From: an uncultured Planctomycetia bacterium
GTDB taxonomy: Bacteria > Omnitrophota > Gorgyraeia > Tantalellales > Tantalellaceae
Length of the DNA stretch: 64,000 nucleotides
Reading direction: 5' to 3'
NCBI GenBank assembly: GCA_964409365.1
Contig: CAYPCX010000001.1
Span: 64,684-128,683, forward strand
Positions 57,001-64,000 of the stretch are shown here, in pieces. The first letter of the stretch is position 1, and each line of letters starts with the position of its first letter. Made by a program: the position numbers.

Positions 57001-60000
57001 GGATATGATGAAAGCAGGGCTAGGTACAATAAAGTTCAGTATAGATTCCCTTGATGATTCAAAGCAAAAAGAAATACGGGGGGAGAATAATAATTTTACA
57101 GATTCTTATAGAAAAATATCTGAGTTGGCAAAGTTAAAGGCAGCAGACCCTTCAGTGAAGACGCAGATGATAGCTACCATGATTGCGCTATCTGATGCCG
57201 AAAAAGATAGGAAGACATATGTTGATTTCATGAAGCTATGGAAGGATAAACCAATTTTTGCGTATATAAAAAGCCAAGATAACCGGTGGTTTCACAAGGA
57301 AGATGAAGAACCGGAATGCAGATCTCACTACGAACAACAGTATTGTGAGTTTCCATGGATGTCTTTAACGGTTATGGTTGATGGTTCTGTAGCACCCTGC
57401 AGCCAGGATTATAATTGTGAAATATCCATGGGTAATGCTAATACCGAATCATTAGAAGACATCTGGAATAATGCTAAGTTTGACCAATTAAGAAAATGGC
57501 ATATTGCAGGCGGTTTTCCCGGAGATTATAAATGTTCTGAGCGATGTGATCTTAAATTGCTTTGCGACAGACTATCCTCTGTAAGTGATTTAAACAGAGT
57601 TTAAACATATTGCAGACATTAAGTAAGGATATGCATGAGCGATGAATGCTTGATATTGATAGATGACATAAGGCCTACGGATGATGTCCTGGCGGACCTG
57701 AGGCGTATCCTTTCCGGGGAAAAGGGCAAGATCATAGCCTTGGGGGAGCCCGTATTGATGATGTTGCGCAACGTGTTCCCGGATTGCGTGAGCTATCATG
57801 ATTTCGAAAGGGAAGGGTCTTATGAAGGCGTGTACGACACGGCGGTAAAATGGGGGCGCCGGTGGTACAAATGCGACGGGAACGATCTTACGGAAGTGGA
57901 AGGATTATCCCTGGGCAGTACGGTGGAATGGTCCGTTATTAATCTTTTTTCTTCATTTTTACAAATGTACGTATCATTGGAGGATATCCTGAACCGTGTC
58001 GAGGCGTCCCGGGTAATTCTTGTAGGGCCCAAGGACAAGCCCCGGGACATCACGGAATGCGGCACTATAGGTATAACCACTGATCGTATCTTGAGATTTC
58101 TTTTATCCCGCGATGAATATAAAGGGATAGATCTGAAGATAATAGGCCTTGATTCCACCCAAAGATTTTTATCGATAAGAGATACCAGGCGGTCAGCCGT
58201 CAGAGCGCTGGCGGGCGGGATGAACAAGATCATCGGGGAGTTGCGCGCGAAGCTGGACCCCGCAAGAACGAAAAGACCCGGCATAGTGTTTTTCGAAGGG
58301 GCGCATCATTTTCGGCCTCTTTTCGTGTCCGGCGCTTTTCGGGACTATGACCTTATACATCTCCAGAAGACCATAGGGCTGTCTCTTGCTAAAGAATTAT
58401 ATTCCGCCGGCGTGCGAGTGGTCCCCCTCGACCGGATAAAACCAAAAAAGATAATGAACATGGATTCACGCGCCGGACTGGACCCCCTGGATAGAGCCCC
58501 TTCGGGCGCGTTCCATTTCAGGGGCAGGGACCTGCTGCCGTGTTTCAGGGAAGACCTGGAAGCGATATACAAAGGATTTTTGGCCAGGTCGGCCTGCTAT
58601 GACCTGTCGCTGGTATCATCGGCGCTCGAGGAGATATCGCCGGGTTGTGTCGTTACTGAAAACGATACTACATACTATGAAAGAATGATCGTGCTGGCCG
58701 CGAAACGCCTCGGGATACCGACTATAGTACTTCAGCACGGGAGCACTTTTTACGGGAAAGCCTGTAACGGGGACGGGCTCGCCTGTCATGCTTTTATACC
58801 TATAACGGCGGATAGATTTTTCGCTTACGGGGAGGCGACATGCGACTGGTTCCGCAATATGGGAGCGCCTGCGAACCGTGTGGTCGCTACCGGGTCGCCG
58901 AGATTCGACGTTTATTACCGGGAGAGGACCGCCGGAGAGCGCGCCGGGCGCAAAAAGGTCATGCTGGCATTAACGGATGTCTGGGTAAGGGGGACAGTGC
59001 CAAAATCCCATACTTCTTTGTGCGTATTTTTTGAGCAGATAAAAGTTTTCATGAAAGTGGCTTGCGGAATGAAAGACGTGGATTTCATTGTGCGGCCTCA
59101 GGATACCATGAACAGGTGGAAAGACCTTTTCCGGAGAGAGCTCGAGGATTGCCGTAACGTTACCATCTCCAAAAAGGGTTCCATGCAAGAGGTCTTAAAG
59201 GACATTGACGTGGTGGTGGGCCATACGACCACGGCCCTGATAGAGGCCGTCATATGCAAGATTCCCGTTATAAGCCTGGACATAGGAGAATTTACCGACG
59301 CGGTGCCTCTCTGGAAATACGGTTGTTCGGCGCGCGTGTCGTCTTATGAAGAATTGCGGGATATATTAGGGGAACTTCTTACGAACCCCGCGGTCCGGGA
59401 GGATCTCGTGGAAAAGGCTTATGCAAATATACAGATGTTCAATTACGGAAATGACGGTAAAGCCACCGAAAGGGTAGCCCGGGAGATAATAGAGACGGTA
59501 AAACGGGGTGTGCCGGTCGAAAAGAGTAAAGGGCGTGAGAGGATATATGCGTGATCAAAGAGAACAGTTCTGGAAGACGAGAGCGAAGAATTACGAGCAG
59601 CTCGAATGGGCTATAAAAGGAGGCTATTTGCACGCTTTTCTTGACGCGGGTGAGTTCCGGCCTGATGACCACGTGCTCGATATCGGAACCGGCACGGGGA
59701 TCATCGCACACACCATATCCCCGCATGTGGACAAGGTGATAGGCGTAGATATCTCGGGAGATATGCTTTTACACGCTTTCGACCACAGGACCGACAACGA
59801 GGAGTTCATCAGGATGGACGCGACGTCCCTGAAGATCAAGGATAATACCTTTTCGAAGGTGACGGCGCGCATGGTGTTCCACCATATACTCGAGGATACG
59901 CAGAAGGCCATGGACGAATGTTACAGGGTCCTGAAGCCCGGCGGCAGGATGATATTTTCAGAGGGTGTGCCGCCGACGGACCATGTGAAGCCGTTCTATG

Positions 60001-63000: not shown

Positions 63001-64000
63001 ATCTGTCACGGTGGTACCGGGCATATCCTTGAGTATGATTCCTCGGAAAGGGAATTTGACTTTGACAGGTTCTACATACCTAATCGTTACGAGGCCGGCA
63101 GGTTCGCCGCGAAACGCACCAAACCGGAAGCGGAAGTCCTCACACTGGGGGACCCCAGGTTCGACAGGAATTGGAAAAAAGAGATGAAAGCGCTTTTTTC
63201 TCCCGAGATAAACAGGAAACTGGAACGCATGGACCTCGGCGATAAACTGCGGCTCCTTTATCTGTGCCCTAATCTGGAGCATATAGGGGAGGAGGAGGCA
63301 AAATACACTAATCTCGACGGTGTGGTACGGCTCGCCAAGGATCTGGGGGCGGTGCTTCTGATAAAACCGCATCCCAGGTACAGGGGCGAAAGAAAGATAC
63401 GCAAGATCATGAAAAAAAGGGACTTCAGGGATTATTACATACTGGATGACGACCCGCTTTTATGCTACGCGGACCATGTCGACTTTGTGATATCCCTGAC
63501 GACCAGCGCTTTACAGGATATCCTCCCGGAAGGAAAGGACAAGATAGTTATCTTTGACGATTTCTCCTCCTCCGCCGATTTGGTCAATATTTTCAGCGAT
63601 AATTTCACGACCGTAGAAACATATGAAGAGCTGCTGGACTGTTTTACCGGAAAAAAGAGAGAAGCGGTGTCTCGTGCGGCCCGCATCGGTGCGTCTGAGG
63701 ATATAAGGGCTTTCTGTAAAAAATGGGTGGCCGGGGAGAAGGAACTGGATTCCGTTATTCCCGATATAGTCGATGACGTGTGTAACGAGCTGAATAAGGT
63801 AGGTCCATGAACCTGGGAATGAAAATAGACAGGTACCTGGCTGTCAGGATGCAGTCGTTAGGCAATGGGGTGCGCGAGCAGCAGAGCGGTCCGCCCATGG
63901 TTTTTCTCGGAGGGATGAGCAGGGTGGGAAACCATTTTCTGCATTCCCTCGTCGACGGGCATTCAAGGATAAAAGCGATGACGGAAGAAGATTTTTTGTT

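Follow-up and report, generated by a model that had tools for sequence, protein, structure and literature searches.

A lineage-specific fusion of a lipid-linked-glycan flippase to a GT-B transferase domain in a nonulosonic-acid locus of an uncultured bacterium

Debate continues over the way in which Wzx-type flippases recognise completed glycan units, and over whether such flippases form complexes with the enzymes that complete them. In streptococcal capsule loci, such as those of group B Streptococcus (cpsK) and Streptococcus suis (cps2N), the terminal nonulosonic-acid (NulO) transferase and the Wzx flippase are encoded in one locus but are separate proteins, and the capsule sialyltransferase belongs to an unrelated family, GT52. 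Here we describe a 64,000-nucleotide stretch of contig CAYPCX010000001.1 from an uncultured Planctomycetia bacterium (the window, in whose numbering all coordinates are given), which likewise encodes a flippase in a NulO context, joined in this case to a GT-B domain within a single 925-aa protein. This fusion is genuine and specific to the lineage; in relatives of the 925-aa protein, its two parts are encoded by neighbouring genes. A functional link of the two activities has been suggested before, since capsule expression in S. suis is lost when sialylation is lost or changed, an effect that the authors attribute to the specificity of the flippase and/or the polymerase (PMC5891629). A covalent link is known from MprF, an aminoacyl-phosphatidylglycerol synthase fused to a lipid flippase domain (bioRxiv 10.1101/2022.03.11.483950). 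As in the 925-aa protein, the flippase domain of MprF lies N-terminal to a cytoplasmic synthase, and the modified lipid is made on the inner leaflet and then translocated; the two differ in that both folds are unrelated, the substrate of MprF is a phospholipid, and MprF is widespread whereas the window fusion is a singleton.

Three groups of described enzymes come closest to the C-terminal domain. TagF, TagB and TarF (PF04464; structure 3l7i) are peripheral cytoplasmic proteins of GT-B fold that use a lipid-linked acceptor and a cytidine-nucleotide donor, features that the window domain would share; it differs in its lack of a PF04464 score, in surroundings that encode NulO synthesis rather than teichoic acid, and in a family whose HG histidine varies. 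To our knowledge, TagF-type enzymes are not fused to a flippase. The second group, KpsC/KpsS (GT107), WbbB (GT99), KpsS1 (GT118, using pseudaminic acid, Pse), KrkA (GT140) and the polysialyltransferase (GT38, 5wcn), uses ulosonic acids of eight or nine carbons activated by cytidine monophosphate (CMP), with an Asp nucleophile and a Glu base as catalytic residues, and KpsC/KpsS serve ABC-transporter pathways rather than Wzx. The likeness consists of weak Capsule_synth and A-2_8-polyST matches in relatives of the window domain and of a fold match to 5wcn; the window domain itself has no significant sequence match to these families. Since the CMP-ulosonic-acid GT-B families GT38, GT99, GT107, GT118 and GT140 are mutually very divergent in sequence (PMC12887879), another unclassified one would be unsurprising. 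The third group is the BFO_1060 family of Tannerella forsythia transferases for Pse or legionaminic-acid (Leg) derivatives, Tanf_01245 and TFUB4_00887, which are TagB-like, carry the sialyltransferase HP motif, are encoded beside NulO biosynthesis genes, act on a Wzx-pathway O-glycan and are genetically required for terminal NulO addition (PMC5420450). The BFO_1060 model matches a 639-aa protein encoded upstream of the fusion (E 5e-15) and 5 of the 28 members of the fused domain's family, whereas the T. forsythia enzymes are free-standing, of about 445 aa, and the window GT-B domain itself has no BFO_1060 match.

Residues 1 to ~493 of the 925-aa protein are assigned, from profile matches and a structural model, to the MOP superfamily as a lipid-linked-glycan flippase of the MurJ/Wzx type. 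Residues 7-278 match Polysacc_synt_3 (PF13440, 58.9 bits against a cut-off of 23) and Polysacc_synt (PF01943, 39.1 bits against 28.2), and 42 stand-alone flippases, 286-548 aa long, align to 98% of this half at 50-55% identity. In an AlphaFold2 (AF2) model of the full-length protein (mean pLDDT 90.3, the flippase half mostly above 90), about 14 membrane helices extend to residue ~473, and an extra helix at 475-499 runs into the soluble domain; the helix number is thus like that of MurJ and replaces the 12-helix flippase of the first-pass annotation of this DNA. Foldseek places the flippase half with MurJ (9nu8, E 7e-10, TMt 0.74, ~509 aligned columns), WzxE (9g9o, TMt up to 0.83) and MATE transporters, at sequence identities to MurJ and WzxE of only 13-16%; unlike the window protein, MurJ and WzxE have no C-terminal enzyme domain. 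From the even number of helices, and from the abundance of Lys and Arg at the N-terminus and in the tail beyond the final helix, the two ends of the flippase, and hence the C-terminal GT-B domain, are predicted to be cytoplasmic.

Residues ~496-925 were modelled with AF2 as a GT-B fold of two Rossmann domains (pLDDT 89.4, pTM 0.88) from an alignment of 28 sequences, the window domain and 27 stand-alone homologues. The 29 homologues returned by a word-indexed search are 35-50% identical to the window domain, and every one of them is free-standing, with a length of 334-449 aa. Conserved motifs are YPYG, HG (H659), GDPRFD (706-711), KPHPRYR (778-784) and D-x3-S-x2-TSA-x2-D-x-LP (817-832); P-Y-G, G-D, P779, P781, R782 and Y783 are invariant across the 28 sequences, and the other residues of YPYG, GDPRFD and KPHPRYR, including K778, H780 and R784, are present in at least 90%. 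The window domain retains 55 of the 56 positions conserved at 90% or more in the family. An obvious D/E-D/E-G motif was not seen conserved in the 28-sequence alignment, to which that inspection was confined. The K-P-H-P and G-x-P-R-x-D motifs are typical of cytidine-nucleotide-using transferases. H659 and H780 may correspond to the catalytic histidines of TagF (the HG base and K-x-H-P), and the whole set HG / G-x-P-R-x-D / K-x-H-P / S-S presumably resembles that of the TagF family. The stretches quoted in the first-pass annotation are all present: in the 925-aa protein, LIKPHPRYRGE lies at residue 776 and DFVISLTTSALQDIL at residue 817, and in the 639-aa protein DVVVGHTTTALIEAV lies at residue 525.

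Pfam matches within the family are Glyphos_transf in 13 of the 28 members (weak, best E 2e-7, and labelled 'weak' for these homologues in precomputed public annotations too), A-2_8-polyST in 2 and Capsule_synth in 1 (E 0.03). Among 39 remoter relatives from the exhaustive search described below, Glyphos_transf is matched by 14, Capsule_synth by 7 (up to E 2e-6) and Epimerase_2 by 5. BFO_1060_trans (5 of the 28, best E 4e-5), TIGR04396 and TIGR04326 are the family's sole glycan-related NCBIfam matches, every BFO_1060_trans match falling far short of the curated cut-off of 200 bits. For the window domain, no match was found to PF04464 Glyphos_transf at E<=1, to Capsule_synth PF05159 (GT107) or to BFO_1060_trans. 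By these profile comparisons, the GT-B half appears to belong to a small uncharacterised family that lies between TagF (Glyphos_transf), KpsC/S (Capsule_synth) and the Tannerella NulO transferases. The initial description as a TagF/capsule-synthesis-like GT-B domain is therefore apt for the region of sequence space in which the profile matches of relatives place the domain, but not as membership in PF04464, PF05159 or BFO_1060.

In three related loci the two halves are separate genes, for a flippase of 492-494 aa and a transferase of 428-435 aa, and in two of them (L001 and L005) the flippase stop codon overlaps the transferase start codon as ATGA. When the 925-aa protein was aligned to the concatenated pairs of L001, L003 and L005, flippase homology extended through ...VRGLIDKGK, at about residue 493, and transferase homology resumed at about residue 499, from YDIVFWGH (residue 501), in a single frame throughout. 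The junction thus coincides with the site at which, in relatives, the flippase gene ends and the transferase gene begins with its ATG. A three-frame translation of the junction bases shows no stop codon and no in-frame ATG, GTG or TTG, and the purine-rich, Shine-Dalgarno-like AAAGGAAAGGAAG persists just upstream. Residues 495-497 are the only part of the full-length model with a pLDDT below 50.

Such a protein could also result from an error of sequencing or assembly, or from a deletion in one strain that is very recent and perhaps inactivating, in which case two separate genes, as in all relatives, would be the natural form: a one-base deletion in an ATGA overlap like that of the relatives could fuse the genes, no other fusion was found among 162 family matches, 42 flippase orthologues and ~14 loci, and the recovered copies, all 100% identical, come from one population. 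We nevertheless consider this explanation quite improbable. Four loci retrieved from public assemblies (ENA, two JGI metagenomes and Logan, produced by three pipelines) all call the identical 925-aa gene, and their DNA equals that of the window, base for base, over 6.7-16.4 kb; the 639-aa neighbour gene is found on at least 10 public contigs. The junction keeps no remnant of an ATG or a stop codon, which speaks against a simple error of one base at an ATGA overlap. Both halves retain nearly all conserved residues, the whole protein keeping 156 of 174 conserved positions in the paired alignment with mostly conservative changes, and the predicted topology leaves the GT-B domain on its cytoplasmic working side, so the fusion should be tolerated. 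An artefact is unlikely because the four assemblies are identical, the junction is clean and the conserved residues are kept, and the frameshift that the first-pass annotation had named as the way in which its claim could fail is not borne out, the DNA across the open reading frame (ORF) being identical in four assemblies. All copies come from one population with zero single-nucleotide polymorphisms (SNPs), which leaves no diversity by which to measure selection on the fused state, and the fusion may be a recent mutation of that population.

The fusion had been called uncommon, which understates the case. The 925-aa protein is recorded as a singleton 90% cluster, and an exhaustive profile search with the GT-B family over 1.84 billion cluster representatives gave 162 matches (17 below E 1e-30), of which one is fused, the window protein; each 50%-identity cluster is shown in this search by a single representative, and fused proteins at 50-90% identity to the window protein could therefore be hidden. 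The 42 flippase orthologues include no fusion, locus scans of GTDB genomes and JGI metagenomes gave about ten further distinct loci with separate genes in every one, and a metagenome scan with the whole 925-aa protein found nothing. Word-indexed searches with either half missed the 925-aa protein itself, although it is present in the collection, whereas the same kind of search with the full 639-aa protein did return that protein, which suggests that partial-length queries may miss much longer subjects. Because half-protein word searches may miss long proteins in this way, the uniqueness of the fusion rests mainly on the exhaustive hidden Markov model (HMM) search and on inspection of the loci. 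In the literature we found no described fusion of a Wzx or other flippase to a glycosyltransferase, which is not a full survey of domain architectures.

The neighbourhood of the two genes is conserved. In ~14 related loci from metagenome-assembled genomes (MAGs) of Omnitrophota and Planctomycetia, which contribute the nearest relatives of both halves at ~50% identity, the transferase lies 0-1 genes downstream of an orthologous flippase that is ~50-57% identical to the window flippase half, and the stop codon of the one gene often overlaps the start codon of the other. These loci also contain a B12-binding radical S-adenosylmethionine (SAM) gene and, where they reach far enough upstream, NeuB; most add NeuC, one or two CTP_transf_3 cytidylyltransferases and a LIC12162-family protein of 615-642 aa just upstream of the flippase. 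The window shares this module and its order, with the 639-aa protein in the LIC12162 position and a methyltransferase gene and a CDP-alcohol phosphotransferase-family gene inserted. Genes for the synthesis of CMP-activated NulO (CMP-NulO) are the most consistent companions of the family, and in the window NeuB, NeuC and a cytidylyltransferase are encoded upstream of the fused protein. Of note, B12-binding radical SAM enzymes constantly accompany the flippase/transferase pair (L001, L003, L013, L015, L017, L023 and the window, which adds a radical SAM/SPASM enzyme), often adjoining the transferase, which suggests an unusual radical (C-)methylation or a similar modification of the sugar.

We propose, with a probability of about one half, that the GT-B domain adds a cytidine-nucleotide-activated residue, CMP-NulO being the favoured donor, to a lipid-linked glycan, and that the fused flippase exports the product. 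We take it as established that a MOP flippase carries, on its cytoplasmic C-terminus by predicted topology, a GT-B domain from the cytidine-nucleotide-using neighbourhood of TagF, KpsC and the NulO transferases, and that flippase and transferase are conserved neighbours in relatives. As for donor, acceptor and order of steps, we infer the following. The GT-B domain would hang from the cytoplasmic C-terminal tail of the flippase at the inner membrane face, where its invariant K-P-H-P-R-Y-R and G-D-P-R-F-D motifs would bind the cytidine-nucleotide-activated donor, most likely a CMP-nonulosonic acid made by the products of the NeuB, NeuC and cytidylyltransferase genes just upstream. The activated group would go onto a lipid-linked glycan, probably as a late or terminal decoration, and the attached flippase would then translocate the finished unit; tethering would turn completion and export into one coupled event. 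The free 639-aa LIC12162-like protein would be a second GT-B enzyme of the module and would probably add another residue. CMP-NulO is favoured because the genes for its synthesis and activation are the most consistent companions, because the glycan-related NCBIfam families matched are NulO-associated, and because the HP motif is invariant.

Several observations weigh against this proposal. The GT-B half has no Pfam or NCBIfam match of its own, and the nearest Pfam family is that of CDP-glycerol phosphotransferases, not of sialyltransferases. A comparison of the family profile with PDB sequences gave one chance-level match (E 0.67) and no solved structure. Foldseek against the PDB gave generic GT-B matches (TM ~0.4-0.55), headed by UDP-N-acetylglucosamine (UDP-GlcNAc) 2-epimerases (E 1e-10, TMq 0.53) and followed by many glycosyltransferases, among them the polysialyltransferase 5wcn, the Kdo transferase WaaA (2xci) and TagF (3l7i, TMq 0.53); on the modelled structure it settles the GT-B fold but cannot part these enzymes. 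The histidine of the HG motif (H659, in CHGG) is replaced by N, Q, T or G in 9 of the 28 members. The full-length model (pTM 0.63) predicts no confident docking between the two domains. Every copy belongs to one zero-SNP population, the locus already encodes a second candidate NulO transferase in the 639-aa protein, and the CDP-alcohol phosphotransferase-family neighbour and a downstream CDP-glucose pathway are also there, so other cytidine-linked donors are on hand.

The last of these points bears on a different chemistry, the main rival of the proposal, in which the GT-B domain is a TagF/TagB-type phosphotransferase that transfers a phospho-alcohol or sugar-phosphate from a CDP-donor, with release of CMP, onto a lipid-linked glycan, as in teichoic acids, possibly together with the adjacent 247-aa CDP-alcohol phosphotransferase-family protein. 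We regard it as somewhat unlikely. Glyphos_transf is indeed the most frequent Pfam match in the family and in its remoter relatives, the fold matches include TagF 3l7i, the gene immediately before the flippase is of the CDP-OH_P_transf family both in the window and in L024, and glucose-1-phosphate cytidylyltransferase and CDP-glucose 4,6-dehydratase are encoded just downstream. The Glyphos_transf matches are weak, however, and the CDP-glucose pathway and CDP-OH_P_transf are missing from most related loci, whereas NeuB occurs throughout and CTP_transf_3 in most. The motifs do not decide the matter: K-P-H-P, or HP, occurs in TagF-type enzymes too and therefore fails to discriminate NulO transferases from them. 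Conversely, a TagB-superfamily domain was reported by NCBI CDD for the NulO transferases of T. forsythia as well (PMC5420450). The first-pass annotation had left open the addition of a phospho-alcohol or phospho-polyol or of an ulosonic acid; no CDP-glycerol or CDP-ribitol synthesis gene (TagD/TarI/TarJ-type) was recognised in the window or the related loci, and the NulO/CMP context favours the ulosonic acid.

The structural matches raise one more possibility, that the GT-B domain is no transferase but a 2-epimerase- or hydrolase-like domain, or a regulatory or substrate-binding domain that gates the flippase. In its favour are the leading position of the 2-epimerases in Foldseek, the Epimerase_2 matches in 5 of the 39 remoter relatives and the variation of the putative catalytic histidine, but identity to the epimerases is just 9-12% at a root-mean-square deviation of ~7 Å, transferases score nearly as well through the shared GT-B fold, and none of the 28 family members matches Epimerase_2. 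The cluster moreover already has a dedicated epimerase, NeuC, and the HP motif is reported for cytidine-nucleotide-using transferases (PMC5420450), so that we give this possibility very little credence and retain the transfer of CMP-NulO as the preferred function.

By profile comparison, the 639-aa protein appears to be a member of a LIC12162-like family that is distantly homologous to the fused GT-B domain within one GT-B group. Its residues 466-624 match TIGR04396 surf_polysacc (E 1e-15) and BFO_1060_trans (55.5 bits), both below the cut-offs, and it shows weak GT-B Pfam matches and no transmembrane segment. A local Pfam scan of the 639-aa protein listed no PF27859 (LIC12162); this family is carried by P0031, its only non-self homologue (36% identity), and, according to precomputed annotations, by the proteins in the matching position of L001 and L003. 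A LIC12162-like profile built from five sequences identifies the corresponding gene of other loci, and LIC12162-like proteins surface weakly (E 1e-6 to 1e-4) in the exhaustive search with the GT-B family. The block that the 639-aa and 925-aa proteins had been said to share is not found by BLASTP (E 0.48, not significant, with just GDPRFD/GSPRFD aligned) but is recovered by profile-profile comparison: hhalign of the two families (probability 95.8%, E 6.6e-9) pairs GT-B domain residues 161-402 with 349-588 of the 639-aa protein over 224 columns at ~18% identity. To call the two paralogous, as had been done, is thus too strong for proteins of separate families. The 639-aa side reads RPQ at the HP motif and has thus lost the conservation of its histidine. 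The module contains one more lineage-specific fusion, in the Omnitrophota locus L015, where a LIC12162-like region lies within a 752-aa protein (1334-3592) with an additional match to a GNAT acetyltransferase.

Many relatives have a single NeuB, accompanied by an HpcH/HpaI aldolase, a SIS isomerase and a second CTP_transf_3, a set that may reflect a further acid of ulosonic type in the glycans. In the 69.5 kb examined, the window organism lacks the HpcH aldolase, the SIS protein and the second CTP_transf_3 of this set; the window has a second, diverged NeuB. Each locus thus tends to have two ulosonic-acid-type synthases, NeuB with either an HpcH aldolase or a second NeuB, and two candidate transferases, which would fit one transferase per acid, although this pairing is speculative.

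The 247-aa protein encoded directly upstream of the fusion was correctly placed in the CDP-alcohol phosphotransferase family at the outset (PF01066 CDP-OH_P_transf, 27.3 bits against a cut-off of 22). Its best solved relative is AF2299 (4o6m, E 7e-6), and its best NCBIfam matches, all far below the cut-offs, are members that use inositol phosphate. The full family signature is D-x2-D-G-x2-A-R-x8-G-x3-D-x3-D, the fourth Asp of which is the proposed catalytic base. In the 247-aa protein the signature DHVDGEVARYFEESSLTGVYYDEVVH (DHVDGEVAR...G..YDEVVH) reads D-x2-D-G-x2-A-R...G-x3-D-x3-H and is thus incomplete, with a His that aligns with the fourth Asp of AF2299 and of IPCT-DIPPS. From this signature the protein may be a functional variant or inactive. 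L024 encodes a homologue of 31% identity (positions 50-364) immediately before its flippase.

The features of the locus are collected in Table 1. The four ORFs that include the fusion lie where they had first been placed, the methyltransferase upstream of the flippase among them; its mechanical ORF (59508-60296) opens at GTG 59508, whereas the gene calls of the four public assemblies start at ATG 59628 (222 aa). Four-base overlaps join the methyltransferase, 247-aa, 925-aa and sulfotransferase-like genes in series, which points to one tightly packed operon. Two antisense ORFs run across the 925-aa gene on the minus strand, 61195-62262 (355 aa) and 62428-63372 (314 aa); neither is called as a gene in the loci of the four public assemblies (L007-L010), and the two are most likely non-coding and due to the base composition of the sense strand.

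Table 1. Features of the NulO block and of the flippase-transferase gene group, in window coordinates.
Feature	Position	Strand	Basis
NulO biosynthesis block, seven genes	49720..57604	+	NCBIfam, Pfam, GC content
NeuB, first copy	49720-50733	+	NeuB_NnaB 502 bits (cut-off 399.65)
NeuB, second, diverged copy	50883-51917	+	NeuB_NnaB 367 bits, below cut-off 399.65
NeuC	51904-53037	+	NeuC_NnaA 401 bits (cut-off 235.9)
CMP-NulO synthetase-like cytidylyltransferase	53018-53746	+	PseF 158 bits, below cut-off
LegC/PseC-like aminotransferase	53759-54964	+	LegC-family 233 bits, below cut-off
B12-binding radical SAM enzyme	55070-56485	+	Pfam Radical_SAM, B12-binding
Radical SAM/SPASM enzyme	56501-57604	+	Pfam Radical_SAM, SPASM
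639-aa soluble LIC12162-like GT-B protein, candidate (nonulosonic-acid) glycosyltransferase	57635..59554	+	profile matches, homologue annotation
Class I SAM methyltransferase, 222 aa from ATG 59628	59628..60296	+	Methyltransf_11 E 3.9e-22 (Pfam)
247-aa membrane protein, CDP-alcohol phosphotransferase family, variant signature	60293..61036	+	PF01066 27.3 bits
925-aa protein, whole	61033-63810	+	
Flippase domain of the 925-aa protein, residues 1-493	61033..62511	+	Pfam, AF2, Foldseek
Junction of the 925-aa protein, residues ~494-498 (EAAAG)	62512..62526	+	alignment to concatenated flippase and transferase pairs
GT-B transferase domain of the 925-aa protein, residues ~499-925	62527..63810	+	AF2 fold, 27 stand-alone homologues
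Start of sulfotransferase-like gene (334 aa), leaves the window at its end	63807..64000	+	Sulfotransfer_3 E 5e-10

The sulfotransferase-like gene is complete in the public locus L007, at 16173-17177. Beyond it, L007 encodes glucose-1-phosphate cytidylyltransferase and CDP-glucose 4,6-dehydratase, both above the NCBIfam cut-offs, and the interval 16173-21920 further holds a Methyltransf_13/14 C-methyltransferase, a 3,5-epimerase, a reductase and a TylF O-methyltransferase, a complete-looking CDP-glucose pathway. In L011, a sulfotransferase 49% identical to that of the window is placed between the flippase and the transferase.

The G+C content is 0.40-0.45 across the block from NeuB to the radical SAM genes (49700-57600), against ~0.52 on either side, and the shift near 57.6 kb coincides with the start of the 639-aa gene. 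This difference from the flanks, together with a first NeuB that is 62-68% identical to NeuB of the related MAG loci, suggests that the biosynthesis cassette was gained horizontally and separately from the transferase and flippase genes. A small HTH_17 (excisionase/MerR-like) gene lies directly upstream of NeuB in the window (49406-49645; L007 1772-2011) and also in the Omnitrophota locus L005 (795-1058), and may be a conserved regulator or mark a cassette boundary. Further upstream, ~27 kb of glycan genes come after an LptD homologue (19330-22221), the whole run spanning 19330-49126; these genes encode an RmlA-like protein, several short-chain dehydrogenases/reductases (SDRs), a UDP-glucose dehydrogenase, a carbamoyltransferase (27657-29486), two DegT aminotransferases, two GT2 proteins, two PMT_2/GT-C proteins and a YfhO-like protein (41214-46909). 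In total the glycan locus exceeds 47 kb, on one strand throughout. The presence of lptD and the long run of sugar-nucleotide, GT2 and GT-C genes from ~22.5 kb therefore point to a diderm with a very large surface-glycan locus.

Two broader ideas follow from the fusion. It could be read as a 'Rosetta stone': across these NulO clusters the late transferase would dock on its cognate MOP flippase, so that completion gates export, and the window organism would have hard-wired the complex of its relatives into one chain. We infer such physical coupling in the relatives with reserve and hold it to be doubtful. In a more radical variant, the 247-aa protein could build a phospholipid-type anchor, and the module could make and flip a NulO-decorated phospho(glyco)lipid rather than an undecaprenyl-linked repeat unit; this is suggested by the recurrence of a homologue of the 247-aa protein before the L024 flippase and by the similarity to inositol-phosphate enzymes.

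Both domain types are ordinary when taken singly, and their joined form is apparently unique, with one occurrence in one uncultured population. Few nonulosonic-acid transferases are known (PMC5420450), and our results flag the GT-B family and its LIC12162-like partner as two uncharacterised candidate families of NulO transferases. The 925-aa protein is a natural covalent join of a flippase and a transferase that are conserved neighbours, and, together with its split orthologues, it provides a testable pair for the coupling of glycan completion and export.

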